From: an uncultured Candidatus Sumerlaeota bacterium
GTDB taxonomy: Bacteria > Sumerlaeota > Sumerlaeia > MVZB01
NCBI GenBank assembly: GCA_964473105.1
Contig: CAYYNQ010000103.1
Span: 17,021-81,020, forward strand
Direction: 5' to 3'
DNA: 64,000 bases
Shown here: positions 8,306 through 64,000 of the stretch, one piece after another
How positions within the stretch are numbered: the stretch's first letter is position 1
Layout: each line of letters begins with the position of its first letter
Translations under genes and position numbers: made by a program
Notes under the pieces: model-generated
What the model saw: only the letters and a program-made list of their open reading frames with translations
Databases searched by the model: none
What the model was told of the DNA's origin: nothing

Positions 8306-8340
8306 ACTACATGACGGTGTCATTAGAAATGAGTTAAACA

Positions 8341-39040: not shown

Positions 39041-39665
39041 TTTGGGCTGCATTTCCCCCGGCAATTGTAATCGACAATCGGTCTCCGAACTCAGCCTAAT
39101 GCGAAAATCAGTTATCCGTGGTTCCGAACCGGTAACGAACCTAGTCTATCGGAAGTTTGCGGTGCGCCGGGTAGTTGCCATGTCGGAACCTTCCAGCCCG
39201 ACGCGGATCTGCCTCGTGGTGATGATATGGAGCAGCATCCGGATCGGTTTGTGCGTCAACAGATCCTGTGGAATGTATCCCTCAAATTCAATGTTTATAC
39301 CCTGGTTATTATTGATGACTTCAGGATCGAAGGAATGGGAATTAATATAGAATCCCCCTTAGTTCAGGATGTTCTGGAGATGCCCGGTATCATGTAAAAA
39401 AGACATGTGATAATGAGCAATACTTGGTTCAACTTCACGGGTTTATCCCCACCTTCAAAAGGTCAAAATATGTTTGTGCAAAATTATTAAGTCCATAATG
39501 ATAAGGATGAAGGGTAGAATGCCAATAAACAATTCCCACTTCGTCTCGATTATCCTGCAGGTGACCGAATTTCACAAGATCCACCCATTGATTTCACTTT
39601 ATCATTCGTTTTGGAACTGGGATGATATACCCGATTAACACCGTATATGTCTGGAGGAGCGAATC

Positions 39666-40433
39666 ATGAAATGGATACGTGAGCGTATGCTTTCGGGTGA
39701 GACCCTTGTCGGTACCATGCTGAATCTGGCTTCCCCATTTACAGCTGAGATTGCAGGGCATGCTGGTTTCGACTGGCTTCTGATCGACTTGGAGCACGGC
39801 GTTGGCGATGAGATGACTCTTGTCCACCAGTTGCAGGCACTGTCCGCAACCCCGGCTGTGCCGTTGGTGCGGATCCCTGCTAATGAGACCTGGCGTTTCA
39901 AGCGGGTCTTGGACTTGGGTGTTTTCGGTGTTATGGTCCCGCATGTCAGCAGCGCCGCAGATGCCGAGCAGGTCGCGGGTGCCATGCGCTATCCTCCAAA
40001 GGGCGTTCGCGGGGCCAATAAATCCAATCGCGCCTGTTGTTTCGGCGGAAAGGCGGGAGATTATTACCCGCATGCCAACGACAATCTGTTGTCGATTGTC
40101 CAGATTGAAACCGCCGAAGCGCTGGGCAATCTGGACGCGATCGCTGCGGTGGACGGGATCGATGTCCTGTTTGTCGGGCCGCTCGATTTGAGTGTCAGCA
40201 TGGGGATTGAAGGCCAGTGGGACGATCCGGAATTCAAAAAGGCCCTGGAGCATATCGCCGATGCTTGTCGTAAACACGGAAAGGTTGCCGGGATGCATGC
40301 AATCAGCACCGATCTACTCAAGCCCACCCAGGATTTGGGATTTACGATGATCGGCATGGCAGTTGAGAGCATCACCGTGACCCAGGCAATGAGGAATCTT
40401 TATTCTCAACTGGAAGTCGTGAAGAAGAAATAA
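39666..40433 (+). CDS. HpcH/HpaI-family 2-keto-3-deoxy-sugar-acid aldolase
   Basis: Collinear with the RhmA/GarL/HpaI type (DWLLIDLEHG, RIP, VPHV..A.DA). A GGAGG RBS precedes the ATG. Confidence 0.8.
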   Translation: MKWIRERMLSGETLVGTMLNLASPFTAEIAGHAGFDWLLIDLEHGVGDEMTLVHQLQALSATPAVPLVRIPANETWRFKRVLDLGVFGVMVPHVSSAADAEQVAGAMRYPPKGVRGANKSNRACCFGGKAGDYYPHANDNLLSIVQIETAEALGNLDAIAAVDGIDVLFVGPLDLSVSMGIEGQWDDPEFKKALEHIADACRKHGKVAGMHAISTDLLKPTQDLGFTMIGMAVESITVTQAMRNLYSQLEVVKKK

Positions 40434-40519
40434 TCGAGTTATTCTGAGTCTTGAATCTCGATCGTGAAACCCTGTATAAATCTACCTGCTCCAGAATATT
40501 ACAGAAGGAGGAAGTCGGC

Positions 40520-41353
40520 ATGGAACCCATGGAAATTGGCCTGATCACAACCATGGCCGAAGGTGTGGAAGAAACTTCGGAAACCATCAAGAAGCTTGAT
40601 CTTGGGAACATCCAGTATCTTGTAATGCCCGATGATGACATGTCGGACGAGTCAGTCGCGAAGATTCGCCGGGCCTTCGTGGATGAGGGGATTGAAATTA
40701 CGCTGCTGTTTTGTTTCTACCGAGGCATGGATTACTCGACGTTGGAAATGGGCGTGCAGACCGGAGGCTTGGTTCCCGCAAGATTTCGTTGGGAACGGTT
40801 GGACTGGACGAAACAGGTGGCGAATTTTGCGAAGGCCCTAGGTGCTTCGGCGGTCTGTTCACACTATGGCGAAATCCCCGAGGAACGTGATACTGGTGAT
40901 TACCGCGATTTGATCAACGTGACACAGGATATTTGTGATCATTGCAAGTCACTCGGCCTGACGTTCAACCTTGAAACCGGTGAGGACTCGACCCGGACCA
41001 TCCATAATTTCCTTGCCGATGTGAGCCGGGACAATCTGGGGATCAACTTCGACCCGGCCAACATGATTCTTTATGGCAAAAGCGATCCAATTGAGGCTCT
41101 GCGGGAGGTTTCCGACCACGTTCTCAGTGTCCATGTCAAGGATGGAAAATGGTCGGCCAACCCCGGTATTGAATGGGGCAGTGAGGTTCCTTTGGGCGAG
41201 GGCGAGGTCAATATTGAGGCCTTCATCAGGACGCTTCACGAGGTCGGTTATGCCGGACCACTGACAATCGAGCGTGAGGTCGAGGGTGAGGAACGAATCC
41301 GGGATGTTGCTTTGGGAATCAGGTTGCTCGAGGATATCAAGGCAAGGCTCTGA
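40520..41353 (+). CDS. Sugar phosphate isomerase/epimerase (xylose-isomerase-like TIM barrel)
   Basis: AP-endonuclease-2/xylose-isomerase-like TIM pattern (FNLETGEDS, HVKDG, EGEVNIEAFIRTL). Start placed at the ATG after the AGGAGG; the ORF is open from 40451. Confidence 0.7.
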   Translation: MEPMEIGLITTMAEGVEETSETIKKLDLGNIQYLVMPDDDMSDESVAKIRRAFVDEGIEITLLFCFYRGMDYSTLEMGVQTGGLVPARFRWERLDWTKQVANFAKALGASAVCSHYGEIPEERDTGDYRDLINVTQDICDHCKSLGLTFNLETGEDSTRTIHNFLADVSRDNLGINFDPANMILYGKSDPIEALREVSDHVLSVHVKDGKWSANPGIEWGSEVPLGEGEVNIEAFIRTLHEVGYAGPLTIEREVEGEERIRDVALGIRLLEDIKARL

Positions 41354-43388: not shown

Positions 43389-45308
43389 TCAGTATGAAAC
43401 CAGGGGAATGATTCTGTCAGGTATGAATTGTGTTACCTGGTGCATGGGTGCCTGATTGGACCGGTAGTGCGTGCGCTCATAGATCTGATAGTAATTTCCC
43501 GTTTCACGCGGCTTGACGTCGATCACCGTGCTGCCCTTGAAGGTCAGCCCGACCTTTTCACCATTGATTGTGTAATCGTCCTCCCAGATAGGGACCGGGA
43601 ACTCCAGGATGATCCTGTCCCCGGGCCGAATTTCCTGAAAGATCAGGCGGTTGCCGTAACCGGCCGGGTCGACTTCCCTGATTTTTACACGGCCGAACAG
43701 GCCTGGGCGTTCAATACGTGACCTTACCCGGTTCTTCTCGACCCATCCGGGGATACGAACGATCACGGTATGAGCTTGCTTGTTGATCAAAACGACCTTG
43801 CCCTCGTAGGGAAGATAACTGGTGACATCCATCCATGCCGAGGCGCGGTTGAGAAAGAGATTGACGGTGGCCATTCCCCGGTCAAACCGTGTGATGCCAT
43901 GCCATGCATAATAAAGTCCCTGTGCGCCATTGACGGCACAGCATCCTCCCAGATTGGCCAGGCAGACACGGGAATGACTGCTGTGTGAAAAACCGCCACG
44001 AAAATTTTTCAGCAGCTCGTCCTCGACTGTCCCGGGTTTTGTCCCGCTGACCCGGCGCATTTTTTCAAGGTCGGTGATCTGCTGCTCGACAAGGTGGTTT
44101 CGCACGGTGTAGTCGAGATCGTCCCAGTAGTCGCCCAAGCCGGCATCACTCATTCGCACGGCATTGACGGCAAAGTCACCGGTGGCGCAGGGTTCGGGAT
44201 AACGCGCGAGGTCAACCGGGCGGCCGTAGGCCTCGGGTTTTGACCATGCGGGTGAGAAACCGAGTCGCACGATACCGTTGCGCCGGGTGTGTTCGTAATA
44301 CTCGCGTGTGAATTCCTTGAGCCAGTCACTGTTGGTGGCGATCGCCATGTCGAGCATTGCAATCAGCCCCTGCGTGCCGTTGTGGAAATGTCCCATCCAG
44401 ATCCCATGTTCGTAACCGGGGTAGCGTTTCTCATCGCTGTTCTCGGCCCACATGCCAGGCTTGAGCGAGAAGCGAAGAATTTTCTTTGCGAGCTCAATCG
44501 ATTCCTCCTCGCCGGTCATTTTGTAATGAATGGCGAGGACACTCATCAGCCGATTGGCTTCAGCACGGGCAGCGCCTTCATAACCGAGTGCATCCATATG
44601 TGGCTCGACCTCAGGGATGTAATCTGGATTGCCCTGACCGTCCTGGACCGTCCACTTCCCCTGTTTGTCGATGCCGGCTTGCATGGGGAAGAATGCCCGA
44701 TCCTCGACGTGGATCGCGACGTTACGGATACCGCGGGCGAGATGATCGATCCAGTCATCCCATTTTGGATTGCCATCGCGGGCCTTGAAATTCAGCATGG
44801 CGAAGATGGTGGTGGCATTGGTCTGGGGGTAGGACGTGCCCTTGAGCTTGCTGGCAGTGACCGGGTAATAGAGCTGTCCGTCCTCATCAATAGCCTTAAG
44901 GAGGGTCTTCATCAGGTTGTATTCGATATCGAGGTTGTGATCGGTGCCGACGGCCTGTCGCAGCATGGGTAGTTGTCGTGCGTTCTTGGGGGAGATATCC
45001 CAGTTTGGGTAATAAATTTCGGGCTTTTTATCATACTGGATGCTTCCCACGGCGTAGGCATGGCTGGGGTCGAGGCTGTTGGTGAGGATGTTAACGGAAT
45101 ATTCCATCTGTCCGACGAGATCAAGCGTATCGGGGACAATGGCCTTGTGTCGTTCCCCAGTCGGATACATACTCTCGATGTTAAGAACTTCATCGATGTT
45201 AAGCTTGGAGGAGGCATTCGGGGAAAATGAAATATTGAAAGCCAGAAGTGCCGCAATGGTCATGGAAGAAATACGAAAAAGGAAACGATTCATGGTTAAA
45301 GTCCCCAC
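43389..45308 (-). CDS. Secreted DUF1680/GH127-like (beta-L-arabinofuranosidase-type) six-hairpin glycosidase
   Basis: Signal peptide and ~640 aa. E372-P-C374 and C456-C457 are spaced like the Zn/catalytic Glu-x-Cys ... Cys-Cys of GH127 (HypBA1 E338/C340/C417/C418). Confidence 0.5.
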   Translation of the reverse strand: MGTLTMNRFLFRISSMTIAALLAFNISFSPNASSKLNIDEVLNIESMYPTGERHKAIVPDTLDLVGQMEYSVNILTNSLDPSHAYAVGSIQYDKKPEIYYPNWDISPKNARQLPMLRQAVGTDHNLDIEYNLMKTLLKAIDEDGQLYYPVTASKLKGTSYPQTNATTIFAMLNFKARDGNPKWDDWIDHLARGIRNVAIHVEDRAFFPMQAGIDKQGKWTVQDGQGNPDYIPEVEPHMDALGYEGAARAEANRLMSVLAIHYKMTGEEESIELAKKILRFSLKPGMWAENSDEKRYPGYEHGIWMGHFHNGTQGLIAMLDMAIATNSDWLKEFTREYYEHTRRNGIVRLGFSPAWSKPEAYGRPVDLARYPEPCATGDFAVNAVRMSDAGLGDYWDDLDYTVRNHLVEQQITDLEKMRRVSGTKPGTVEDELLKNFRGGFSHSSHSRVCLANLGGCCAVNGAQGLYYAWHGITRFDRGMATVNLFLNRASAWMDVTSYLPYEGKVVLINKQAHTVIVRIPGWVEKNRVRSRIERPGLFGRVKIREVDPAGYGNRLIFQEIRPGDRIILEFPVPIWEDDYTINGEKVGLTFKGSTVIDVKPRETGNYYQIYERTHYRSNQAPMHQVTQFIPDRIIPLVSY

Positions 45309-47671: not shown

Positions 47672-48682
47672 ATGTCAGGAGTCAGAGCTGAAATGAACAT
47701 GGGATTTGTAGACCTGCATGTGAACGGTATTGCCGGAACTGATTTCACAAAGCCGGACCTGACTGGTGATGATGTTTCTCGGGTCGCTGCATATCTGTAT
47801 CGGCACGGTGTGGCGGGATTCTGCCCGACGGTCATAACAACGTCGATGAGTACATATAGGCGTTGCCTGCCGGTTCTGGCGGGCCATAAACATTCACCTG
47901 GCGAGGCGAAGGTCTTGGGCATTCATGTTGAGGGTCCGTTCCTAAGTCCGCAGGACGGCCCGCGTGGGATTCACCCGGCTGATTTGATGCGACAACCATC
48001 GATCAACTTGTTTGATCAATTGCGTTCCTGGGCCGATGATAAAATATTGATGCTGACACTTGCTCCCGAGTTGCCAGGCTCGGTTGAGTTGATAAGGCAT
48101 GTCCGGACACAAACCACGGCAAGGATTTCAATTGGTCACACGATGGCGCCATCCGATGCTATCAGGGCTGCTGTCGATGCCGGCGCGACTTTGGCAACCC
48201 ATCTGGGAAACGGTTTGGCGAGCATGATTCACCGGCATTATAATCCGCTCTGGCCACTACTAGACGACGATCGTCTTTCGGCAATGTTGATCACCGACGG
48301 ATTCCATCTCCCGGCCGATATGGTCAGGACCTGCCTGCGTGCGAAGGGGGCAAGACGTTCAATCGTAACGAGCGATGTTGTCCATATCTCGGGCTTGGAC
48401 CCGGGCGATCATATAATGCATGGGGTGGAAGTCGTACTTGAGGTGAATGGTCATTTGCATCGCAGGGGTGCGGATAATCAGTTGGCCGGGTCAGGATGCC
48501 ACATGTTGGATTGCATGAACCACCTTTCATCACTTGAGATTTTGAATGAGAAGGAATTGCGGGCCGTTGGTCGGACGAATGCACTAGATGTGCTGGGTTA
48601 TGATGGGGAAATGGAAGATGATCTGGTTGTGTATGAAGGCGGGAAATTCAAAGTCAGGAAGATCAGTGACGGATCTGCCTAG
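47672..48682 (+). CDS. nagA: N-acetylglucosamine-6-phosphate deacetylase-like amidohydrolase (short form)
   Basis: DLHVNGIAGTDF (E. coli NagA-type DxQ/HxNG), HVEGPFLSP, HLGNG, and a C-terminal beta-segment. 336 aa, with no long N-terminal beta-sandwich. Confidence 0.65.
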   Translation: MSGVRAEMNMGFVDLHVNGIAGTDFTKPDLTGDDVSRVAAYLYRHGVAGFCPTVITTSMSTYRRCLPVLAGHKHSPGEAKVLGIHVEGPFLSPQDGPRGIHPADLMRQPSINLFDQLRSWADDKILMLTLAPELPGSVELIRHVRTQTTARISIGHTMAPSDAIRAAVDAGATLATHLGNGLASMIHRHYNPLWPLLDDDRLSAMLITDGFHLPADMVRTCLRAKGARRSIVTSDVVHISGLDPGDHIMHGVEVVLEVNGHLHRRGADNQLAGSGCHMLDCMNHLSSLEILNEKELRAVGRTNALDVLGYDGEMEDDLVVYEGGKFKVRKISDGSA

Positions 48683-52417: not shown

Positions 52418-54193
52418 TCACCTGGAATCGCCGTAGCGATAATAGAGGTAATCGATCATAAACCGCTGGTAATAGGGCCAGTTGCCCGCACCCCATCCCT
52501 TCTGTCCGACATGGGAACCCTGGAAAGACACCAGTGCAGGATAGGAAAACGCCGCAATCTTGCCGAACATGTCCTTCGAATCGAAGGGTTCGGAAAAAAC
52601 CCACGGGTCCTTCTTGTCGGCCTTGAACCCCACGCGAAGGTTGTACTGGTTCGGGATCTGGATCAGCATATAGAGCGGCCGGGCGGTCATGATTGCCTGA
52701 GTCAGCTCGGGTCCGAACTCGGGCGTGATCCGGATGTTCGGATTGACAAAGCTACCACGTTTGGGATCGAAAGCACCCGAATTACTGTAGGCGATGGCTT
52801 TCCCTGGAATATTTGTGATGCAGGGCTGCCAAGGGTGGTAGGTTCCTTCGGTATCGTAGAGTCCAACATTCCACCAAAGGTTCCAGGGTCGTTCATTGCC
52901 GGGTGGGATAAAACAGAGCTCGATCTCGAACGGGGGTTTGCGATTCCCGATCACGTCCATTTTACCCGGCCCGATCGGGCAGAGTGCCCAGCCACCGTTC
53001 ATGCCGTAGGGTGTCAGGGTCATGTATCCGGGATTGGAGTAGGTTTCACCGAACACATCGCCCTCGATGTAGTATTTCATGTCTGCGAGGAAACCGGGGA
53101 TGTTGAAGTCATCGGAAAGATGCTCGACGTTTTGCGGCCCGGATCCATAGAAGTGCATGTAGTCCACGTAATACTCAAAGCGTTTGTCAGGCACCTGGAC
53201 CTGGAAGGTGTTCTTGAGCCGGTTCAGGATCTCGATCTGTTCAGGTGAGATATCCTTCATGAGCTTGTGGTGTTCACGGAAACTGTCGATCCACATCGGG
53301 GCTTCGTTGACACTCAGTTTTTTTGCAAGCACGTCCGGGATCCAGCGATCGAGGGATATGATCGGCCCGATTTCCCAGACACCGGTGATCGGTCGCGGTG
53401 TGCTAAACTGTCTAAATTGCCATCCCGAGTCGTGGCCTGCCCCGACACCGAGTTCGATGGACTGGTTGCTGGAAAGTCCGATGGTAAAGCGGATGGAATA
53501 CTCGGCGGGACCGCCGAACCGTTTCCAGGTTCCGGAGATTGAATTGGCAAACCCGACCCATGAGTAGTTGAAATCCCAGCGGCCGTTGACCGTCTCGGGG
53601 GCGAGATCACCCCGGCCGTAGATCATGTAGACCTCAGGTGAAAAGTCACGCTGATTCATGTCGGTATGCTTGACGGCCGGCAGGCCCTGGCGGTAGTTCT
53701 CCCCCTGATTTCCCAGGTGGACGACAAACAACTGCAGTTCCTCCGTATCGGGTGGCCGTTTGGAGCGGTCGGTCGGCCAAGTGGAGGGGTCGGAATAGGT
53801 GACGGCCAGGTTTACCCCGAAGGCCCAGTTGATCTGCTCATTGACGAGTCCCTTGACCCCGAGGTAGTTCTGGAGGATTCCCATGTGAAATTTCCAGGGC
53901 AGGGGGTAATCATCGATACGGATCGGTTCCCTGAGGATTCCCTTGATGTCCTGTCCGTTTCCGTTTTCACGGATCGTGAGGTAGCCGGGATTTTCGGTGG
54001 CGGTCATCTCGCGGATGTTGGAATCGGGGGTGAACATCCAGGGGTTGAGGTTGTCACCGTCAATAAAATGCTGATTGAGTTTGCGGATATCCCGGTCGTC
54101 CCGGGCATTTGTTTCGGCCTGCGACAGGATAAGGAGGAACAGGACTACCAAACTCAGGAGTTCGGTTCTTGAATGAAACCAGGGATTATACAT
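52418..54193 (-). CDS. Secreted protein of unrecognised family (family A, copy 2)
   Basis: Paralog of 41380..43263 (roughly half identical by eye, collinear). Signal peptide after the Met at 54193; the ORF is open to 54292. Confidence 0.75.
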   Translation of the reverse strand: MYNPWFHSRTELLSLVVLFLLILSQAETNARDDRDIRKLNQHFIDGDNLNPWMFTPDSNIREMTATENPGYLTIRENGNGQDIKGILREPIRIDDYPLPWKFHMGILQNYLGVKGLVNEQINWAFGVNLAVTYSDPSTWPTDRSKRPPDTEELQLFVVHLGNQGENYRQGLPAVKHTDMNQRDFSPEVYMIYGRGDLAPETVNGRWDFNYSWVGFANSISGTWKRFGGPAEYSIRFTIGLSSNQSIELGVGAGHDSGWQFRQFSTPRPITGVWEIGPIISLDRWIPDVLAKKLSVNEAPMWIDSFREHHKLMKDISPEQIEILNRLKNTFQVQVPDKRFEYYVDYMHFYGSGPQNVEHLSDDFNIPGFLADMKYYIEGDVFGETYSNPGYMTLTPYGMNGGWALCPIGPGKMDVIGNRKPPFEIELCFIPPGNERPWNLWWNVGLYDTEGTYHPWQPCITNIPGKAIAYSNSGAFDPKRGSFVNPNIRITPEFGPELTQAIMTARPLYMLIQIPNQYNLRVGFKADKKDPWVFSEPFDSKDMFGKIAAFSYPALVSFQGSHVGQKGWGAGNWPYYQRFMIDYLYYRYGDSR

Positions 54194-54456
54194 TGGTCGG
54201 GCCTTTCTGGCCTTGATCCGGAAAGACGACTTTTTTTCTAGATGCATCAATGAATTGGGAACGGGGGTACCCCCCCTTATTTTAAAGATCATCTTTACAG
54301 TGTCATGACAAGCAAAATTCTGCGTGAAACGAACCGAAGTATCAACCCGGAAATCATGTTCGTCGAAAAATCATCCGTGGTTAAAATCATTGCGGACTGA
54401 CTGGAAGTACATCAATACATAATCCCATGCATGCCAGGCAGGAAAGCCCGGCCTAG

Positions 54457-54747
54457 ATTTTCGGGGTTGCGCTGATCTCGGCGGTCGGGTCTTTCATTTT
54501 CGGGTTCGAGTATGGTGATCATATCCGGTGTCATCTTGTTCCTGGAGGAGGGATGCGGGCTGTCCGGCCAGACGGTGGCCCACGCCTTTGCGACGACCCG
54601 GGAGAACTTCATCAAGCTCCACGACATTTCGCTGGCAGTTTCTTGATATTCACCGGGATCTCCATGCTGGCCTTCCTTTTCAATTTCAAGATGGTTTCAG
54701 AAACCAAGAAAAAAACACTTGGTAAAATCTCAGCCTTTTGGACTTAA
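54457..54747 (+). pseudogene. Possible 3' remnant of an MFS sugar-porter gene
   Basis: The reading frame ends ...GSFLIFTGISMLAFLFNFKMVSETKKKTLGKISAFWT. This resembles sugar-porter TM12 plus the PETKGK(T/S)LEEI tail. The upstream part is not transporter-like in any frame. Confidence 0.25.
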
Positions 54748-56520
54748 GAGTGCAGGAGGACGGGCACCCGAACCTGAATCATGATTGTTCAGGTCCTGAT
54801 ATGTGTTGATGTCATTCTCATAACGCAAAGCGAGGTCATCCATGTCACCCTTGAGAAAATAGATGCGTTGGTGGGTCAGGCGCGAACCGCCGGCTGGAAT
54901 CGAAGAATCCGGATTACAGTGCAGGCAGGAATATTCACGGTTATTGAACAACCGGTTTGGCGGGCCCGTCAACACCACTGGGCAGACCAGCCATTCCCCG
55001 TCTCGTGAACGGGTTGAGATAAAAGGGCCATTGACAACAGTGGGGTCTCTCCCTGAGGGATCGCTTGAAGGTAGCATGTGGTTTTGGCAGTAGATGCGGT
55101 CGTTGACGTGATGCCAGATTTCCTCCATCGACTTCAAGCCACGATCGGTCGAGATCAAGGTGCGTACACCGTCGTGGTCGCGGAAGTTGGGCGCACCTGC
55201 GAGACTCAGGCACATTTCCTGGGATGTCGAGACCGTGTTCGGTCCGTTGTTTCGGCAGTCGAAGATGATATCGATGCTGTCAAGCCCGGTCTCGACCCGG
55301 AGACGGGCGTGCATTTCCCAATCCTCCTTTTGCGTCGTATATTCGACATGCGTGAAATCAGGGCTGAAATTGAACGTCTGGACTGGGGAATTCCACTGCC
55401 AGTAACACTCAAGCATGACGCCGAATCGGTCATCGGGAAAATATGGTACACGAACCTCAACCATCCACAGTGTCATCTCTCCGCGTATTTCTTCGGGGGT
55501 GAAATCGTCGGGCCATCGTCTTGGATCGCCGGGAGGCGCATCGCGGATTGATTCAACCGAGCGGGTGGGCAGAATACGGATATTTTCCTTGAGATATATT
55601 CCCGGATCGGGAGGCTGCGGCCGATGAGATTCCCGTGATAAGGGCCACGGGGCGCGACGTTGATATGGATCCGTATCGGTTTGGGCCATTGACTTGTTCG
55701 GAAAGTCATCCGGCAGGTCCATCGCGCAACGGAATCCGGAGTAGGGCTGGTTGAATAATTTCGAGGCGAGCATCGACCCGTTGCCACCGGGATGGCCGAT
55801 GTGCAGTGCACTGACAAACTGCCAGGGCCGGGAAAAAATGAAACCTCCGCCCTTGGTGATGATACAGTATTCAAAACCTTCTGCGCGTGCCCCGTCCACG
55901 TATTCAGGCACATTTCCGGCCATGTCCATCACGCCATAGATACTGCGGTCTAGACCGAACGAACCCACGGGTGAGGTTTCAGGATTCATGGGCCGGCCTT
56001 GCAAGTCATCCATCCTGCAGGCGTGCGGGTGCCAGGTGTTGCCCCACGGCCACAAACGTCCATCCGTTCCTCGTGCGGCCTTCTCCCATTCGGCCTCCGT
56101 GGGCAGGCGTTTTCCGGCCCAGTTTGCATAGGCGCCGGCGTCTGCATGATCAATTCCGACGACGGGATGATCGGCCCGTTCTTCGGGGTATTCCGCGATG
56201 ATCCAGTTCAGGGGTAGACGATACCCGGTCGCCTCAGTGAATTCGCGGTACTGTTGGTTGGTGACCTCGAACCGGTCGATCAGGAACGCAGGCAGTTCGA
56301 TTTCTCGAGAGGGGATGTTTGCACACAGGTCCGGGTTGATCTGGTAGGTCTCAGAGAGTTTCTGTATTTGATCACTTGTCAGTCCGGACAGGAATATGCC
56401 CGCAGGAACGAGAACCATGTCTTTGTGTAATGGTGTGTTATGAAATGTACCAGCCGTGAATCCATTCATGGAAATGGCAATAAGGCAGAACACCATGGAT
56501 CGGATGAATATGTTTTCCAT
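54730..56520 (-). CDS. Secreted FGE/SUMF1-fold domain protein lacking the catalytic Cys pair, with a C-terminal ~330 aa domain of unknown function (family B, copy 1)
   Basis: Signal peptide. FGE-sulfatase domain (RLPTEAEWEKAARGTDGRLWPWGN...GFRCAMD) with no Cys at the FGE active-site positions. The C-terminal domain is shared with 56840..58537 (NFRDHDG.RT, LFNN.EYSC.H.NP, QRIYF..GD...LA.RY). Confidence 0.8.
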   Translation of the reverse strand: MENIFIRSMVFCLIAISMNGFTAGTFHNTPLHKDMVLVPAGIFLSGLTSDQIQKLSETYQINPDLCANIPSREIELPAFLIDRFEVTNQQYREFTEATGYRLPLNWIIAEYPEERADHPVVGIDHADAGAYANWAGKRLPTEAEWEKAARGTDGRLWPWGNTWHPHACRMDDLQGRPMNPETSPVGSFGLDRSIYGVMDMAGNVPEYVDGARAEGFEYCIITKGGGFIFSRPWQFVSALHIGHPGGNGSMLASKLFNQPYSGFRCAMDLPDDFPNKSMAQTDTDPYQRRAPWPLSRESHRPQPPDPGIYLKENIRILPTRSVESIRDAPPGDPRRWPDDFTPEEIRGEMTLWMVEVRVPYFPDDRFGVMLECYWQWNSPVQTFNFSPDFTHVEYTTQKEDWEMHARLRVETGLDSIDIIFDCRNNGPNTVSTSQEMCLSLAGAPNFRDHDGVRTLISTDRGLKSMEEIWHHVNDRIYCQNHMLPSSDPSGRDPTVVNGPFISTRSRDGEWLVCPVVLTGPPNRLFNNREYSCLHCNPDSSIPAGGSRLTHQRIYFLKGDMDDLALRYENDINTYQDLNNHDSGSGARPPALLSPKG

Positions 56521-56839
56521 TCACGCCTGTTACACGAGAATACTGAAATAATCAACATTATCCTGTATCCAAATAAATCGGGATACGGCCTTGTTCCCTT
56601 GCTGTGAAGGGATTGCGGGTTGATGTCCAGAATTCTGCGGGCATTCCGGCATGTCATATATCATGTCGGTTCGTTTGCCAGAATCCTGATATCAATTTTG
56701 GATAGGGTATATGATGAAGTGACGTCAGCCCTGTTCTTGGAAGTTCCAATCACAGTCACAAAGCAATGAAAATATGTGCAAATCTGTTCCTTATGGGTTA
56801 CAAGGATCATCAAGCTCAAGAAGGTATCGGAGGCGAAGC
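56521..56839. promoter_or_regulatory. Shared divergent promoter region between the two family-B genes
   Basis: Non-coding stretch between the divergent paralogs. Contains a perfect 8-bp palindrome TGACGTCA at 56720..56727 and a GGAGG RBS before 56840. Confidence 0.4.
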
Positions 56840-58537
56840 ATGCAGCATGCGAAGACAGGGTTACTATTCATTCTTGTTCTGGCTTCATTCATGCCCTTTC
56901 ATGTGATGTCGAGGCCACCCTTGCCTGCGACCGATGGAATGGTTCTGGTCCCGGCGGGAAAATATACGATGGGCACCTCGAAAAAACAGCAGCTGAAATT
57001 TTCGGAACAGTATCGCATTCATCCCGATATCTTTGAGATTCGGCCGCGCCGCGAAGTAATTGTTGCCGCCTTCTATATTGACGAGCATGAAGTCACGATA
57101 GGGGAATATCGGGATTTTATGGAGGCAACCGGTCATCGTGTGCCGATCATCTGGCTGGAACACGGGTTGCCCCGGGGAATGGATGAGCACGCCGTTACCG
57201 GGGTGGATTACGAGGATGCGGAGACCTATGCGCAATGGGCCGGAAAACGCCTGCCCACTGATGTTGAATGGGAGAAGGCTGCACGAGGTGCCGACGGCAG
57301 AATCTTTCCATGGGGCAATCACTGGGAACCCGGGGCATGTAATGCTGATAGCGGGGGAACGGATGCGATGATCACACATCCGGCGGTGGTCGGTTCGCAT
57401 CCGCGTGATCGAAGTGTCTATGGTGTTTATGATATGGCCGGGAACGTGATGGAATGGGTGGGGTATGCAACCCCCCCGGGTCTGGTACGTGGTGGTAGTT
57501 TTGCGCAGGCCGCACCTTGGCAGTTCAGTTGTTCTGCACGCGTGATCCACCCCACCAACCACGGAGGACTGGGATACATCGGATTCCGATGTGCAATGGA
57601 CGCCGGTCGGGTCACCCGGACTACCTCGCGCCTGCCGACCAGACCCGGGATCAAAAAAACTCCCGATCCGGGTTCAGTCTCAAACAAGGTCCGCAGACCC
57701 GATGCAACGTTGATCGGTTCAGAGTCGATCCGGATCTTTCCTGTATACGAACTGGACCCGGACAGGAAAAGTTACCAGAATGCAATGTTCCATTATATTG
57801 GAGATCTGCGTGAGGAGAAACTGACTACAGAGGAAATGGTACCCTGGCGATTCGAGGCACAGATCCCCTACATGCCAGATGACCGTTTCGCATTTTTCTT
57901 TGAGGGACAGTATGAGCGTCCAATGGAGGGGTTATGGTTCAGCGATGATTTTACGGAGGCGAAAGTCCGGACTGATTCCACAGGCATTGAGTCCCGGGTC
58001 TCCATCAGGTGCGGCAGGGATTTCATCGATATCGAGCTCAGTGCGATCAATCATACCGACAGCGATTACCACACGACCATGGAGATTTGCTTTCAACCCT
58101 TGTGGGCGCCCAATTTTCGGGACCACGATGGTTTGCGCACATACATGCTGACCGATGAGGGCTTCAGGAGTACAAGCCAGATCGAGCACCGGGTGATGGA
58201 GCGGTTTTGGTGCCAACAGTACCTTGTCGAGAAGCCTCTAGGCGGGGGCTATGAGGGTACGCCCGGATTAAATGGGTCGATGGTTGCAGTCGTATCACGC
58301 GATCACCGGTGGGCGATCTCGCCGGCAGCCATTTCCAGTCGGCCTTACAGACTATTCAACAACTGGGAATATTCATGTATCCATAGCAATCCGATTTCGG
58401 GTGTTAAAGGTGGAGAGAGCAGACAGTCGAGACAGAGGATATATTTCCATCATGGTGATTTGAAGTCGCTGGCGGAACGTTATGCCGGTGATGCGGAGTT
58501 TGACGTGAAATATCTCCAACATGCCGAACACCCATGA
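56840..58537 (+). CDS. Secreted FGE/SUMF1-fold domain protein with the same unknown C-terminal domain (family B, copy 2)
   Basis: RLPTDVEWEKAARGADGRIFPWGN...GFRCAMD and the shared C-terminal domain. Start at MQHAKT after the GGAGG; the ORF is open from 56774. Confidence 0.8.
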   Translation: MQHAKTGLLFILVLASFMPFHVMSRPPLPATDGMVLVPAGKYTMGTSKKQQLKFSEQYRIHPDIFEIRPRREVIVAAFYIDEHEVTIGEYRDFMEATGHRVPIIWLEHGLPRGMDEHAVTGVDYEDAETYAQWAGKRLPTDVEWEKAARGADGRIFPWGNHWEPGACNADSGGTDAMITHPAVVGSHPRDRSVYGVYDMAGNVMEWVGYATPPGLVRGGSFAQAAPWQFSCSARVIHPTNHGGLGYIGFRCAMDAGRVTRTTSRLPTRPGIKKTPDPGSVSNKVRRPDATLIGSESIRIFPVYELDPDRKSYQNAMFHYIGDLREEKLTTEEMVPWRFEAQIPYMPDDRFAFFFEGQYERPMEGLWFSDDFTEAKVRTDSTGIESRVSIRCGRDFIDIELSAINHTDSDYHTTMEICFQPLWAPNFRDHDGLRTYMLTDEGFRSTSQIEHRVMERFWCQQYLVEKPLGGGYEGTPGLNGSMVAVVSRDHRWAISPAAISSRPYRLFNNWEYSCIHSNPISGVKGGESRQSRQRIYFHHGDLKSLAERYAGDAEFDVKYLQHAEHP

Positions 58538-58878: not shown

Positions 58879-59370
58879 TTAATGTTGCGAAACCGACTCC
58901 ATATCCACGAGGACAACATGCATATTGGGCATGGGTGGAAATGTCTGAATGGAAGTGATGCTGGAAATGGTTCCAGTGAAAGTAACGGTCAGGCCTGGTC
59001 TGAGCATGCCCGATTCACGCGGTTTTAGGTTGAATTCCACGTTTGGGGTGCGGTGATTATCCATCGCAACATGGACGGTTCCGTCCATGTTGATTTCGAT
59101 GAGTCTTCCGGTCCATAACACCTTGGTTCCCCTGAGGCTGTTTGAATATTGTTCAAGTCTTTTGGTGGTGTACATGTTGGGTGTTTGGTCGTAAATATCG
59201 GTGTAGGTTAGGCCAGATATCTGCGTATCTGGACTGTCGGATCGTGCAACGTGTTGCGTTGGAGATCCGCATGCTAGGAGAATTAGTGAACAAAGCAGGG
59301 GTTCAGCCAGCTTATATCCAAGGGCTTTCCGGATGGGCAAAATAGTTTTGGGTCGGGCGGCGCGAATCAC
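58879..59370 (-). CDS. Hypothetical lipoprotein
   Basis: Lipobox LILLACGS. 163 aa. Begins 5 bp after the upstream hydrolase stop. Confidence 0.6.
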   Translation of the reverse strand: MIRAARPKTILPIRKALGYKLAEPLLCSLILLACGSPTQHVARSDSPDTQISGLTYTDIYDQTPNMYTTKRLEQYSNSLRGTKVLWTGRLIEINMDGTVHVAMDNHRTPNVEFNLKPRESGMLRPGLTVTFTGTISSITSIQTFPPMPNMHVVLVDMESVSQH

Positions 59371-60368: not shown

Positions 60369-60601
60369 GTTCGACTTATGCTTTCCGAGGTCGTTTGTTG
60401 TGATGTGTGATACAGATTGTCATGGAATCATGGGGAGCATGTCTCATGGCTTCTATCTTTATGCCGATTGCGTCCTGTAGTGTCAACAGACCGGTTACAT
60501 GCGGGGTTTGAAGCCGCATTCATCATGATTCCTGTTGCGAGGGGAATTGTGAACGGGATACTCTCGCGAGTTCAAGAGTGGGTGTCTGTCAGGAGTGGAA
60601 T

Positions 60602-61939
60602 ATGAGATCGACTCATGGAGTGATGATTCTAACATTATTTGTGCTTCTAGGGGAGGAATCCCCGTGCCGTGCCCAGCAAGATATTGACGTGCCACCGAGG
60701 CATGGTTCAATGGATGATGACGGTTCAGGGACTACAAAACTGCCTTCCAAATTGGTGGCCCCTCCAATGAATGAACAGGTCAGGGAATATCTTGGGCGCG
60801 TCATCTACACCCGTGAGGAAGTCCAGAGGTGGATCAAGGGGGATTATTACCTTGATATCCATGACCCGTTGATGGGCTGGATACACCACGAGGACCGTAT
60901 CCCGGCCGGCATGGACGGGTCTTTTGCGGTCAACACCTATGGCCCAAGTGGCGCCCGTCACATGATCCAGCATGCCGACAAATCATGTCGTATTAATACC
61001 TACGGAAACAGTTTTACCCATTGTGACCAGGTCAATGATGGGGAAACCTGGCAGGAATACTTGGCTGCTCATCTGGGTGAACCGGTCAGGAACTGGGGCC
61101 TGAGCGGACACTCGGTTTACCAGATGTATGTGCGCATGAAGCACGAAGAGAAACGACATCCCTCAAAATACATGATTGTGAACATCTATAGTGACGACCA
61201 TTACCGAAGCGTCTATGGATGGCCTGGGATTGCAGTCGGCACGCATCCGGACGAGATCCTGATCGGGGCACACCGGCGTCCGCCGATGCCATGGGTCGAG
61301 GTCAATCCCTCGACGGGAAAATTCATCGAGCATGTCAACTTATGCTCCGATCCGGAAGACCTGTATCGTATGTGTAACCTTGACTTTGTCGTGGAACATT
61401 TCGGCCGGGGACTGGTTCTGAGTGCGTATATCGGCCGGCGTAACCTGAGACGTGGACTTCCTGAATACAGTTATGATGACATCAGGAGACTGGGACAAGA
61501 ACACGGGCTTGACTTGAAGGTCGATTCTGCGGAAAGTCTCCGATCTTCCATCGACCGGATCTACAAGGTTGCGGCGATCTATGCCAGCAAGCGGGTTGTC
61601 GGGATGATGGAGACGTTTGCTGCTGACTACGCCCGGAAAATTCTTTATGTCCTTTCCTATACCTCTCAGGATTTGATGCTGTCGCTGGATTGTAACGAGC
61701 GGGTTGATCATGAATTTGTTGATTTCCTGGAGTCTGAGGGACTGCCGTATGTCGACTTGCTCGAGGCGCACCGCGAGGAGTTCGGCCAGTTTGAGATGAC
61801 GGTTGAAGAGTATGCCGATCGATATTATATCGGGCATTACAGGCCGATTGGGAACCACTTCACGGCCTTTGCGATTAAGGATAGGCTGGTCGAGATGCTT
61901 GAGTCGAAACCACCGTCCTACAACCTTGATTTAGAATGA
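60602..61939 (+). CDS. Secreted SGNH/GDSL-like hydrolase-fold protein, variant block I GNSFT
   Basis: Signal peptide (MRSTHGVMILTLFVLLG). NTYGNSFTHCDQ (GDS-to-GNS), WGLSGHS and a C-terminal GHY. The ORF is open from 60578. Confidence 0.55.
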   Translation: MRSTHGVMILTLFVLLGEESPCRAQQDIDVPPRHGSMDDDGSGTTKLPSKLVAPPMNEQVREYLGRVIYTREEVQRWIKGDYYLDIHDPLMGWIHHEDRIPAGMDGSFAVNTYGPSGARHMIQHADKSCRINTYGNSFTHCDQVNDGETWQEYLAAHLGEPVRNWGLSGHSVYQMYVRMKHEEKRHPSKYMIVNIYSDDHYRSVYGWPGIAVGTHPDEILIGAHRRPPMPWVEVNPSTGKFIEHVNLCSDPEDLYRMCNLDFVVEHFGRGLVLSAYIGRRNLRRGLPEYSYDDIRRLGQEHGLDLKVDSAESLRSSIDRIYKVAAIYASKRVVGMMETFAADYARKILYVLSYTSQDLMLSLDCNERVDHEFVDFLESEGLPYVDLLEAHREEFGQFEMTVEEYADRYYIGHYRPIGNHFTAFAIKDRLVEMLESKPPSYNLDLE

Positions 61940-62146
61940 ATCCTATTTTGTAATCATGATCAGGCCGAAGCAATGATAGAATCCTTCCGGCAATCTATTC
62001 GATCTTGTGTCGCCTGATGGATGGGCCTCTCAGACCTTTCGATTCATTGGCAGGCCTAATCCACCCTCAAATATTCTGGCTGCGTCAGCGATTCTCTGTG
62101 GTGGATATGTTGTTTCTCCAATTGCGATAAAGATCACGGCAATGCC

Positions 62147-63430
62147 TTACAGGAGTAGATCCCTAACTTCTCGAATCATCTCATGCATCAGCTTCTGTTT
62201 GAGGCGATGTTGTTGAAGCCGGGTCATTTCTTGGCTTATGGGTTTCGGGGCACTGGGGGAAAGAATCGATTCCTCTTCCAAGATACGACTGATGGTCTCA
62301 TCCAGTCGTCGGATCATCGGCGCCAGCTCGGCGGATTTCAAGGCCGACCGGTAAGACTCGATCTCCTCGTCGACAATCTTCCAGGCATGTTGTGCCGCTC
62401 CCGCACGTTGTCGCCGGTGACAGTCGATAATCCCCTGCATTTCCTCAAGATTAAACAACTCGACATGGTCTATCGAGTTTAATCTTTTGTCGAGGATGTG
62501 GGGGACCCCCACGTCCACCATGCAGACCTTGGTATTGCGATGCCGGTTCCTGCAGGCTTTCTGGTAAATTGATTCAGATAACACCAGCTCGGGTGCATAG
62601 GCTGCCCCGAGAATGAAATCTGCATCGGCAAGCAGGGCAGGCAATTCATCCAGTGACCGGGCCTCCGCACCCGCTTCACTTGCCGTCATCTCAGCATTTC
62701 GAAGCGACCGGTTTACGATGCAAAACCGCGATGGTTCACGCTCGGCGATAGCTCGCGCGGCCAGCCTGCCGACCTTGCCCGACCCGATCACAAGGCAATG
62801 GCGCCCTTTCAATCCCCCGAGCACCATCTCGCCTTTCAACACGGCGGCCTTGCCGACCTCGAGAGTCCCAAGGTTCAGTTCAGTTTCACTCCGAATGCGT
62901 TTGCTGCAGTGGTTGGCGGATGCATAAAGACGATGCATTTCCGGACCGATGGCCCCCCCCGCCAAACCATTCTCAAAAGCCTTCTTCAGTTGCCCCTTGA
63001 TTTGGTTTTCGCCAAGCAGCAGCGAATCCAGACCCGCAGTGACTGCGAACAGGTGACGGGCTGCCTCGATCCCGCTGTATTCGTAGATGGGTGGCGGCAT
63101 GTTCGCATCGAAAATCCCCGGATGGATATTCACGAATATCTCACGAAGCTGTATGCCAAACCCTGGGTCATTGCTGAATGCGACCAGTTCGGTTCGGTTG
63201 CAGGTTGAAATGATCATGAATTGGCAGTCATTGTGATCTGTACGCACATGCTGTATTAGATCCTGTGCCTGTCCACTGTTCAGCGCGAAGCGTTCACGCA
63301 TGGCAAGAGGGGCGCTGATATGGTTCATTCCACAGAGCCAGGCGAGCGGAAGATGACGTGATATGTTCAAGTCATGGAACGTCTCGTCCCGAATCCTTTG
63401 CTGAAGCTGTTCGGTTGTTGACAGGTTCAT
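62147..63430 (-). CDS. hemA: Glutamyl-tRNA reductase
   Basis: ISTCNRTE catalytic motif, NADPH-binding GSGKVGRLAARA, dimerisation tail. The ATG at 63430 overlaps the stop of the upstream gene (ATGA). Confidence 0.9.
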   Translation of the reverse strand: MNLSTTEQLQQRIRDETFHDLNISRHLPLAWLCGMNHISAPLAMRERFALNSGQAQDLIQHVRTDHNDCQFMIISTCNRTELVAFSNDPGFGIQLREIFVNIHPGIFDANMPPPIYEYSGIEAARHLFAVTAGLDSLLLGENQIKGQLKKAFENGLAGGAIGPEMHRLYASANHCSKRIRSETELNLGTLEVGKAAVLKGEMVLGGLKGRHCLVIGSGKVGRLAARAIAEREPSRFCIVNRSLRNAEMTASEAGAEARSLDELPALLADADFILGAAYAPELVLSESIYQKACRNRHRNTKVCMVDVGVPHILDKRLNSIDHVELFNLEEMQGIIDCHRRQRAGAAQHAWKIVDEEIESYRSALKSAELAPMIRRLDETISRILEEESILSPSAPKPISQEMTRLQQHRLKQKLMHEMIREVRDLLL

Positions 63431-64000
63431 ATCTGGTCCTGAAAGCCTCCAGCGATTTGGTTTCGGCATAATTTTTCGGCGAGCAGCCGTGAATTTTCAA
63501 TGCAGTCGGCAACTGATGTGCCTTTTCTCCAATTACCGGAAAGGTTCAGGCCCGGGTGCCTTGCCTCAGCCATGGAAAACTGTTCCAGTCGGTCACGATG
63601 ACGCATGTCATACTGGGGGATCCCGTGTTCCCAGCGCCGGATTATTCGGCATTGCTCTTTCCCATTCCATCCGAGCACACGGGCGAGATCCCTTTTGACA
63701 GCGCCTATCAACTGACCGTCATCCAGATCCATCACGGCGGGGTCCAGCTCGCCTCCCGCAAAAACAGTCAGCGCACAAGCATCATCCGGCGCACGCCCGG
63801 CAAAGAAGTTCGATGCGATGACTGCTCCCAGGATTCTCAGGCCCTGATCACGGACACAGAGGAATCCGAATCCATCGGGCAGGTGTTCAATGTCTCTTTT
63901 TCGGACACCCAGCGAAACGATCGCGAGGCGGTTGTAGGGCATGTTTCTCAGTGCTGCGGATAGACCTGGATCGAAGCCACTGACCCATCTAGCCGTGGCC
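63427..64000 (-). CDS. hemY: Protoporphyrinogen/coproporphyrinogen oxidase (HemY-type), C-terminal part only; the gene continues past the window
   Basis: C-terminal PPOX pattern (...FAGRAPDD..LTVFAGG...RRWEHGIPQY..H..R). The frame is open to the window end. Confidence 0.65.
   Translation of the reverse strand, partial: ATARWVSGFDPGLSAALRNMPYNRLAIVSLGVRKRDIEHLPDGFGFLCVRDQGLRILGAVIASNFFAGRAPDDACALTVFAGGELDPAVMDLDDGQLIGAVKRDLARVLGWNGKEQCRIIRRWEHGIPQYDMRHRDRLEQFSMAEARHPGLNLSGNWRKGTSVADCIENSRLLAEKLCRNQIAGGFQDQI

Follow-up and report, generated by a model that had tools for sequence, protein, structure and literature searches.

A divergent gene pair of a Sumerlaeota bacterium encodes predicted exported proteins that join a cysteine-less FGE-like domain to a mutarotase-like β-sandwich

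The divergent gene pair and its surroundings

The analysed DNA, called the window here, is a 64 kb stretch from an uncultured Candidatus Sumerlaeota bacterium. The sequence-only reading of the window had described a pair of divergently transcribed genes, and both open reading frames were found where it placed them. The motifs that it quoted (RLPTxxEWEKAARGxDGRxxPWGN, GFRCAMD, FRDHDGxRT, NNxEYSCxH, and QRIYFxxGD) are all present. The pair and its intergenic region comprise the following features.

54730..56520, minus strand: geneA, open reading frame of 596 aa; A-type paralogue with a Cys-less FGE-like domain and a CxH β-sandwich
56449..56520, minus strand: predicted Sec-type signal peptide of geneA, aa 1-24, MENIFIRSMVFCLIAISMNGFTAG, assigned by eye from the sequence
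56521..56839, no strand: divergent intergenic region up to M23 of geneB, holding short palindromes
56628-56637: intergenic palindrome CAGAATTCTG
56679-56688: intergenic palindrome CAGAATCCTG
56731-56755: intergenic palindrome CTGTTCTTGGAA/TTCCAATCACAG
56774..58537, plus strand: geneB, longest open reading frame of 587 aa; two-domain B-type paralogue, predicted to be secreted
56840, plus strand: likely start of geneB at M23, as in the public gene call P0001 of 565 aa
56840..56911, plus strand: predicted Sec-type signal peptide of geneB, MQHAKTGLLFILVLASFMPFHVMS, assigned by eye from the sequence

The proteins share 39% identity over 564 aa (E 1e-131) and are probably anciently duplicated copies of one exported two-domain protein. 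The A- and B-type paralogues are also neighbors in locus L007, and the closest homolog of geneA, P0011, is 53% identical to it. The signal peptide of geneA contains a charged R7 followed by a hydrophobic stretch and lacks an RR motif. The M23 start gives geneB a cleaner signal peptide than the 587-aa frame does, and widens the gap between the genes from 253 to 319 bp. A promoter scan of the intergenic region gave matches at chance level.

The genes are part of a sugar-catabolic island that contains an aldolase, a sugar-isomerase-like TIM barrel, esterases, a Na+/solute symporter, and several secreted proteins of 620-640 aa without a known family.

39666..41353, plus strand: HpcH/HpaI aldolase (39666-40433) and AP_endonuc_2 TIM-barrel protein (40451-41353)
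43389..45308, minus strand: 639-aa protein of no known family, with homologs near FGE-CxH genes
52418..54292, minus strand: 624-aa secreted protein of no known family, adjoining geneA

The 624-aa protein is a 43% identical paralogue of a 627-aa protein encoded at 41380-43263, and the homolog P0121 is likewise flanked by an unannotated 624-aa protein. In L002 (E 6e-153) and L007 (E 2e-53), FGE-CxH genes have a homolog of the 639-aa protein in their vicinity, and the aldolase and AP_endonuc_2 families recur beside fused homologs in L002, L004, and L006. A census of the neighbors of 21 modules revealed no obligatory third gene and a weak enrichment of glycan genes, in which the phyla surveyed are rich anyway. 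The earlier remark that no sulfatase gene lies nearby is borne out for the entire 64 kb window: phmmer with three sulfatase queries against its 47 open reading frames, and Pfam scans, detected none.

An FGE fold without the catalytic cysteines

The N-terminal half of each protein is a domain of the formylglycine-generating enzyme (FGE) type.

55693..56421, minus strand: geneA FGE-like (C-type-lectin-like) domain, aa 34-276, PF03781
55801-55851, minus strand: geneA active-site-equivalent segment GGGFIFSRPWQFVSALH, without Cys
56933..57604, plus strand: geneB FGE-like domain, aa 54-277, PF03781
57332-57349, plus strand: geneB clade-specific Cys189 in GACNAD
57491-57541, plus strand: geneB active-site-equivalent segment GGSFAQAAPWQFSCSAR, equivalents of C336 and C341 missing

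The Pfam family FGE-sulfatase (PF03781) matches both proteins with E-values of about 1e-40 (3e-39 and 2e-41), in agreement with the initial assignment. The DMAGNVxEW and PWGN motifs, which may bear on the structural Ca2+ sites of the fold, are kept. In the HMMER alignment, GGSFA--QAAPWQFSCSAR of geneB is placed against GGSYMC336HRSYC341YRYRC346AAR of human SUMF1, so that C336 falls on a gap, C341 is replaced by proline, and the structural C346 alone is retained. The corresponding segment of geneA contains no cysteine. The residue-level alignment thereby bears out the proposed loss of the catalytic cysteines in both copies, including the detail that the first has none in this segment and the second at most one. 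The catalytic pair is missing throughout a 31-member family alignment. The C218 equivalent is alanine, C365 (in GFRC) is retained, and a clade-specific C189 is present in 61 of 64 members of the partnered clade, as opposed to 14% of generic FGE-like domains. Since the Cu-binding pair is lost, formylglycine formation of the FGE type is impossible for the N-terminal half of geneA and geneB.

The loss alone is unsurprising, because Cys-less FGE folds are common and well documented in the superfamily: SUMF2, PorK (PMC12421860), PvdO, and Tsi3 (bioRxiv 10.1101/2021.05.21.445229). The best PDB match and structural relative of the domain is SUMF2/pFGE (PDB 1y4j), the inactive paralogue of human FGE. 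SUMF2 is, however, a single-domain eukaryotic protein of the ER, with neither the β-sandwich partner nor the bacterial Tat/Sec context of geneA and geneB.

Identity with characterized relatives was rejected from NCBIfam scores, which were 62-72 for EgtB/OvoA (TIGR03440, cutoff 360), 52-66 for SenA (cutoff 420), 55-68 for PorK/GldK (TIGR03525, cutoff 350), 12-27 for GldJ (cutoff 458), and 32-39 for PvdO (NF051459, cutoff 500). The sulfoxide/selenoxide synthases EgtB, OvoA, and SenA are cytoplasmic and carry an N-terminal DinB_2 helical bundle as the partner domain; geneA and geneB are predicted to be exported, lack DinB, and have a C-terminal β-sandwich instead. PorN, the partner of PorK, is not mutarotase-like, unlike the partner domain described here. 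The PorKN complex of type IX secretion is a 33-fold ring (PMC12421860), and nothing at geneA and geneB suggests one.

The C-terminal domain and its pairing with the FGE-like domain

The C-terminal halves of both proteins belong to one family with a shared set of conserved residues.

54796..55602, minus strand: geneA C-terminal domain, predicted galactose-mutarotase-like, aa 307-575
54919-54945, minus strand: geneA signature NNREYSCLH
55159-55185, minus strand: geneA signature FRDHDGVRT
57707..58507, plus strand: geneB C-terminal domain, predicted galactose-mutarotase-like, aa 312-578
58082-58093, plus strand: geneB signature C439
58115-58141, plus strand: geneB signature FRDHDGLRT
58295-58306, plus strand: geneB signature SRDH
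58358-58384, plus strand: geneB signature NNWEYSCIH
58433-58459, plus strand: geneB signature QRIYFHHGD

The domain is about 265 aa long, with a core of about 220 aa, and not ~330 aa as first proposed, because it is preceded by a low-confidence linker of roughly 35-45 aa (pLDDT below 50 at residues 281-302 of the structure model). Searches of Pfam, NCBIfam, and PDB sequences gave no match to the C-terminal domain in any architecture. At E<=0.1 in Pfam, the domains of geneA and geneB and the standalone members were unmatched, also by Aldose_epim (PF01263), and a PDB sequence search at E<=10 returned nothing; membership of the aldose 1-epimerase sequence family was rejected on these grounds. At the fold level, Foldseek comparison of the model points to a galactose-mutarotase-like β-supersandwich. 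The suggestion that the domain matches no family thus stands for the sequence and fails for the fold: the domain is new as a sequence family only, and its fold is well known. Its fold relatives are galactose mutarotase/aldose-1-epimerase and the supersandwiches of GH38, GH36, GH65, GH94, GH174, PL4/PL26, and OpgG/D (GH186). Identity to this superfamily is just 5-13%, and TM-scores to mutarotases are only 0.35-0.47, so the active-site geometry is not transferable from them. Judged by sequence, the conserved residues (C, CxH, D..RT, N, Y) differ from the His/His/Asp/Glu set of mutarotases.

Clustering at 50% identity divides the family into at least 875 clusters (E<=1e-3), of which 333 are retrieved at E<=1e-10. 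Overall identity within it is only about 20-25%. The near-invariant signature, in geneB numbering, consists of D416, N426, C439, D450, R455-T456, S508-x-D510, N530, C535-x-H537, Y557, R569, and D573, and is conserved whatever the architecture. Among 128 instances not attached to an FGE-like domain, C535 and H537 were each present in 122, N530 in 116, N426 in 115, Y557 in 111, R569 in 107, C439 in 105, and D450 and R455 in 104 each. C439 and C535 may form a simple disulfide. The domain is also fused to glycan-related partners: sulfatase, GH78, DUF6259, β-helix, Laminin_G_3, and GDSL. This sizeable, completely unannotated family with an enzyme-like signature can now be defined, its annotation corrected, and a new Pfam or DUF entry could be justified.

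The conserved pairing of the two domains is a new result of this analysis. Inspection of homolog neighborhoods showed that the domains recur both fused, in about 35 clusters, and as coupled genes. In the split form, the standalone C-domain gene is immediately preceded by a small gene for a Cys-less FGE in 27 of 31 metagenomic loci (22 of 26 after removal of near-duplicates); these counts cover one standalone subfamily, retrieved by two peptide patterns, at loci with enough upstream sequence. The junction, AAGGAGG..TGATG, combines a Shine-Dalgarno sequence with a TGATG stop/start overlap. Around generic FGE-like genes, a C-domain was found within 10 kb at none of 78 loci. Recurrence both as fusions and as gene pairs with coupled translation shows that the coupling is functional rather than accidental, and since the two parts are encoded by separate, coupled genes in other bacteria, the combination represents a conserved two-part machine. 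Not every family member is paired, since some C-domain proteins (L091) have no FGE gene nearby. Together with the loss of the cysteines and the unmatched C-terminal sequence, the pairing supports the earlier idea of an FGE fold recruited to another use alongside a new domain.

Among the 23 split FGE subunits with complete sequence, 19 have a Tat RR motif with a hydrophobic stretch. The C-domain partner never carries a signal, and begins at its first β-strand. This distribution suggests hitchhiker co-export: the split pair probably assembles in the cytoplasm, and the complex would then leave as one. Tat hitchhiker complexes include the small and large subunits of hydrogenase, and DmsAB. The split homologs resemble them in having RR on one subunit only, a signal-less partner, and translational coupling, whereas the window proteins differ in being fused and having predicted Sec-type signals. 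Modules without any signal keep the cysteines and the signature.

Possible functions of the two-domain module

We favor the interpretation that geneA and geneB are periplasmic carbohydrate-directed enzymes with the active site in the β-sandwich. That the Cys-less FGE fold and the mutarotase-like β-sandwich form an obligate functional unit is a proposal that we hold with middling confidence. The β-sandwich would contain the ligand-binding or catalytic pocket, possibly metal-assisted through its Cys and His residues. The FGE fold, its old substrate groove repurposed, would dock onto the β-sandwich and aid in binding or presenting the substrate, similar to PorK on PorN and to the FGE-like domain of EgtB, which completes an active site with its partner domain. 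After these two, the module would be the third case in which an FGE fold docks onto another domain or presents the substrate to it. A carbohydrate or glycan-derived sugar is the likeliest substrate, and the catabolic island around the genes would process it. Should glycans be the target of the module, polysaccharide degradation in Planctomycetota, Verrucomicrobiota, Armatimonadota, and related uncultured groups would gain a new component. The signature residues, the partner protein, and Tat dependence provide handles by which the function is now testable.

Many glycoside hydrolases, and also YidC, contain the mutarotase-like supersandwich without using it for catalysis, which counts against a catalytic role. 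Both domains could be modules of the lectin or CBM type, capturing polysaccharide for neighboring enzymes, either in the periplasm or on the cell surface. The FGE fold is C-type-lectin-like, the supersandwich usually serves as the accessory or carbohydrate-binding domain of GH38, GH36, GH65, GH94, and similar enzymes, sulfatase, GH78, and DUF6259 enzymes occur as fusion partners of the C-domain, and the predicted exported window proteins belong to a catabolic island. Nevertheless, we consider such non-catalytic binding unlikely. Cys, His, Asp, Arg, and Asn residues that are nearly invariant at about 20-25% identity are atypical of binding modules, which tend toward conserved aromatic platforms; the signature persists in signal-less, presumably cytoplasmic modules; and a heterodimer that is assembled first and then exported by the Tat hitchhiker route is more typically an enzyme.

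A redox or metallo-enzyme for the modification of proteins or peptides, with the β-sandwich supplying the missing thiols and His in trans, possibly for alternative sulfatase maturation or thiol oxidation, is a somewhat weaker candidate and in our view doubtful. The scaffold is of FGE descent, Cys189 is specific to the partnered clade, and enzymes with cofactors are commonly exported by the Tat route. The split clade is rich in cysteines (NCFNC, DxEC, and YSCIH in the C-domain; EFC, ACC, EWC, GGC, and GFRC in the FGE subunit), which persist in signal-less forms. One C-domain is fused to a sulfatase (P0216), and sulfatase genes occur near L092 and L005. However, sulfatases accompany just two of the 21 surveyed modules, in phyla that are sulfatase-rich, none was detected in the window, most of the extra cysteines are absent from the fused Sec-exported clade, to which the window genes belong, and none of the known types of metal-binding motif was identified. 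It is conceivable to the same slight degree that the FGE-like and CxH β-sandwich domains constitute a new two-component extracytoplasmic metalloenzyme, in which the partner would restore the lost Cys/His center at the interface, creating a composite site at which glycans or proteins would undergo new chemistry dependent on O2 or a metal, possibly a non-canonical sulfatase or glycan modification.

A pure structural scaffold of the PorK-PorN or GldJ/K kind, or a toxin immunity protein such as Tsi3, with no enzymatic or sugar role, is very improbable: the GldK/PorK scores are far below the cutoff, Pfam scans of the window detected no T9SS genes, T6SS genes were not seen there either, and the PADLOC models of anti-phage defense gave no matches for geneA, geneB, a standalone C-domain, a split FGE partner, or two neighboring proteins. 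A conserved signature of polar and thiol residues in a putative pocket is also unexpected for a scaffold. That the proteins are genuine FGEs (EC 1.8.3.7), as implied by the PF03781 match, the JGI names of homologs, and the public name 'formylglycine-generating enzyme required for sulfatase activity', is hardly credible given the two lost catalytic cysteines, the sulfatase-free window, and an inactive paralogue as the nearest structural relative. FGE-sulfatase domains are among the most often mis-annotated in environmental bacteria, and this clade of them is not FGE but one half of a conserved two-part module.

Two secreted proteins with a cysteine-less FGE fold

The paralogues geneA and geneB are transcribed divergently from the positions that the sequence-only reading had assigned to them, and every motif that it had quoted is present in their sequences:

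54730..56520, minus strand, geneA, ORF of 596 aa
56774..58537, plus strand, geneB, ORF of 587 aa; the public gene call starts at M23 (56840; protein cluster P0001, 565 aa)

The two proteins share 39% identity across 564 aa (E 1e-131) and are therefore paralogues over both halves. The sole Pfam domain of each is the FGE-sulfatase domain PF03781 (E 3e-39 in geneA and 2e-41 in geneB), and their NCBIfam scores against EgtB, GldK/PorK, SenA, and PvdO are far below threshold. The catalytic cysteine pair, corresponding to C336 and C341 of human SUMF1, had been proposed to be lost, and alignment shows that it is absent. The C-terminal ~300 residues of both proteins have no Pfam cover even at E ≤ 0.1. 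The N-termini of geneA and of geneB read from M23 are composed of a charged residue and a hydrophobic stretch, lack an RR motif, and are read by eye as putative Sec-type signal peptides.

The intergenic region between the two genes contains repeats that are candidate operator sites; chance could yield repeats so short. Promoter and terminator scans gave results at chance level.

56628-56637, perfect 10-bp palindrome CAGAATTCTG
56679-56688, near-copy CAGAATCCTG, 51 bp downstream of CAGAATTCTG
56731-56755, inverted repeat CTGTTCTTGGAA/TTCCAATCACAG with 12-bp arms

The pair is located in a sugar-catabolic island. Up to 39 kb, the window carries housekeeping genes (gyrB, purL/Q, DAHP synthase, homoserine dehydrogenase, and rpoN), and the island begins at 39.6 kb. 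It encodes an HpcH/HpaI aldolase, an AP_endonuc_2 TIM barrel, and 627-aa and 639-aa proteins of no known family. Also encoded there are an esterase-like 688-aa protein, an SSF symporter, a 624-aa protein, geneA, geneB, an alpha/beta hydrolase, and a 453-aa protein. No sulfatase was found in the 64-kb window, as had been claimed for the vicinity of the pair. The island proteins without matches are:

41380-43263, plus strand, 627-aa protein, no match in Pfam, NCBIfam, PDB sequences, or PADLOC
43389-45308, minus strand, 639-aa protein, no match in the same four collections
52418-54292, minus strand, 624-aa protein, no match in the same four collections
47672-48682, plus strand, 336-aa ORF, no Pfam match
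58879-59370, minus strand, 163-aa ORF, no Pfam match, lipoprotein-like N-terminus LILLACGS
60578-61939, plus strand, 453-aa ORF, no Pfam match

At 43% identity, the 627-aa and 624-aa proteins are paralogues of each other. The 639-aa protein belongs to a distinct family, which has members beside genes for the FGE-like and C-terminal domains at loci L002 (E 6e-153) and L007 (E 2e-53). These 620-640 aa proteins may be unclassified glycan-active enzymes. Of two long ORFs that overlap in opposite orientation, 39594-40298 (minus) and 39666-40433 (plus), the latter is the real gene; it encodes the HpcH/HpaI aldolase and has a Pfam match (E 2e-42) and homologues in L002 and L004. ARAGORN detected no tRNA gene in the window, no Rfam family reached the gathering threshold, and the GC skew is positive except in the final 2 kb (62001-64000), where it is negative.

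A large unannotated family of mutarotase-like domains

The C-terminal domain of geneA and geneB (C-domain, or CxH β-sandwich) is a galactose-mutarotase-like supersandwich from a large unannotated family. An exhaustive HMM search of 1.84 billion representatives yielded 875 clusters at E ≤ 1e-3 and 333 at E ≤ 1e-10. The domain had been said to match no known family, and the searches agree: in any architecture there is no Pfam match at E ≤ 0.1, no NCBIfam model, and no PDB sequence match (profile search, E ≤ 10). PADLOC gave no match either. The C-domain occurs as a standalone protein of 250-290 aa, in tandem duplications, and in fusions to FGE-like, sulfatase, GH78 rhamnosidase, DUF6259, GDSL esterase, creatininase, and FG-GAP propeller domains; three-part fusions combine it with β-helix and FGE or with Laminin_G_3 and FGE. 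It is fused N-terminally to DUF6259 in P0218, P0252, and P0280 (1061-1105 aa), to a GH78 rhamnosidase in P0199, and to a creatininase-family domain in P0263; in P0216 the fusion is C-terminal, to a sulfatase. Of these sequences, P0199 and P0216 were read through, and both show the signature motifs. Standalone members from named sources belong to Armatimonadota, Hydrogenedentes, and Verrucomicrobiales. The apparent standalone member P0121 was rejected: with a 184-aa FGE fragment immediately before it, this is probably a two-domain gene that has been split or frameshifted.

The family has an invariant signature of polar and thiol residues, numbered here as in geneB, at an overall identity of only ~20-25%. 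In 148 C-domain instances aligned to the profile, the signature is retained with or without an FGE domain. Among the 128 instances without FGE, it comprises C535 and H537 (122 each), N530 (116), N426 (115), Y557 (111), R569 (107), C439 (105), D450, R455, and T456 (104 each), and S508 (103). Such a pattern would be expected for a catalytic site, or a specific ligand or metal site, intrinsic to the C-domain.

Pairing by fusion or translational coupling and one-sided Tat signals

The C-domain is paired with the FGE-like domain either within one protein or as two adjacent genes. The standalone C-domain genes of P0290 (L092) and P0305 (L094), both on long contigs, lie directly downstream of small FGE-sulfatase genes, whose products also lack the catalytic cysteine pair. 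A linkage scan of metagenomes with a sub-alignment of the standalone C-domain subfamily provided 52 loci. Within this one subfamily, retrieved with two peptide patterns, an FGE domain ends less than 400 bp upstream on the same strand in 27 of the 31 loci having at least 800 bp of upstream sequence, or in 22/26 after removal of five near-duplicates. A further case is L133, in which the FGE domain overlaps the C-domain gene by 57 bp; most truncated loci have a partial FGE at the contig edge, and L138 and L142 are fused rather than split. At the split-pair junction, AAGGAGG..TGATG, the FGE gene contains a Shine-Dalgarno sequence ahead of a stop/start overlap, an arrangement in which the two genes (230-277 aa and ~250 aa) are translationally coupled.

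The pairing is not universal, as L091 has a C-domain and no FGE gene nearby. In the reverse test, with 78 generic FGE-like loci of other lineages, no C-domain lay within 10 kb of any of them. A single-protein scan returned chiefly FGE-only loci; the only two-domain loci were L016 (Bacteroidales MAG), another split pair, and L011 (Planctomycetota MAG), which at 47% identity is the nearest two-domain homologue from a named genome. The FGE-only relatives P0024 and P0026 (~785 aa) contain three tandem FGE-like domains (40-274, 288-520, and 534-780 in P0024).

Only one subunit of the split pairs bears a Tat signal. Extending the split FGE ORFs beyond their annotated starts shows a twin-arginine motif and, after it, a hydrophobic stretch in 19 of 23 complete N-termini of the non-redundant set (such as SRREFLSTAASILSAAA and TRRQWLLTAGAGAA); the remaining four are three without a signal and one fragment. 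The coupled C-domain proteins start at the first β-strand and have no signal. At L092 (~8050-8917), L094 (~8141-9004), and also L095, the recorded FGE-like starts lie downstream of an in-frame Tat signal (MRNDLSRREFLSTAASILSAAA; HELTRREMIAATGVALAALAS), and the annotation therefore hides it. We read the one-sided signals as Tat hitchhiker export, in which the complex is put together before it is exported; the subunits would then be physically associated. The fused window proteins would need no hitchhiking and appear to use their Sec-type signals instead.

Cys189 is conserved specifically in the partnered FGE clade (61/64, versus 14% of generic domains), which has alanine at the position of the usual structural cysteine (human C218). 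The split clade is rich in cysteines, with the motifs NCFNC, DxEC, and YSCIH in the C-domain and EFC, ACC, EWC, GGC, and GFRC in the FGE subunit; cysteines are fewer in the fused clade. Signal-less split modules keep all of these motifs, evidence against a role confined to disulfides in those modules.

Neighbourhoods of homologues and probable function

Homologues of the HpcH aldolase, AP_endonuc_2, and 639-aa proteins are located beside fused members in L002, L004, L006, and L007. GeneA is closest to P0011 (53%), and geneB to P0004 (53%) and P0002 (75%). In L007, one strand carries P0011 (914-2713) and P0004 (2766-4553) as tandem neighbours and, after them, a 659-aa homologue of the 639-aa protein. 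The paralogue pair is old; it is conserved, but its orientation is not, being divergent in the window and tandem in L007. Other loci contain SASA esterases, GH20, heparinase-like, sulfatase, URO-D, GH38, and GH78 genes. An all-against-all BLAST of 107 neighbours of 21 modules found no cluster in at least three loci and hence no obligatory third partner gene. The Pfam census of these neighbours lists 125 families, none in more than six proteins, with glycan themes at low frequency. Linkage to sulfatases was considered and is weak: sulfatases are found at two of the 21 modules, one C-domain fusion to a sulfatase is known, and the window contains none.

We consider it very probable that the FGE-like domain and the C-domain constitute an obligate two-part module that is not an FGE. 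In this reading, the FGE fold has been put to another use, together with a partner of its own. The two parts would form a complex with an active or ligand site in the β-sandwich, possibly with a metal, and the FGE fold, by analogy with PorK-PorN and EgtB, may dock and help to present a substrate, putatively carbohydrate-derived. The favoured reading is that the module is a carbohydrate-directed enzyme, with a chance approaching even. Glycan binding without catalysis is unlikely, and a redox or metallo enzyme that modifies proteins, to which the conserved thiols might point, somewhat more so. A pure scaffold or immunity protein is highly improbable. A true FGE is rejected, with hardly any probability left to it, because the catalytic cysteines are absent.

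The cysteine-less FGE fold itself is already known. The C-domain family with its systematic FGE-like pairing, and the Tat hitchhiker arrangement of the pair, are absent from Pfam, NCBIfam, PDB, and the searchable literature, where nothing relevant was found on FGE/C-domain pairing, DUF6259, or Tat-exported FGE-like proteins.

Genes of the URO-D (uroporphyrinogen-decarboxylase-like) family, which includes methyltransferases, recur near the modules at unrelated loci (L005, 15569-16690; L009/L010, 7493-8677; L092, 2051-3037), and the neighbour census contains two more matches.
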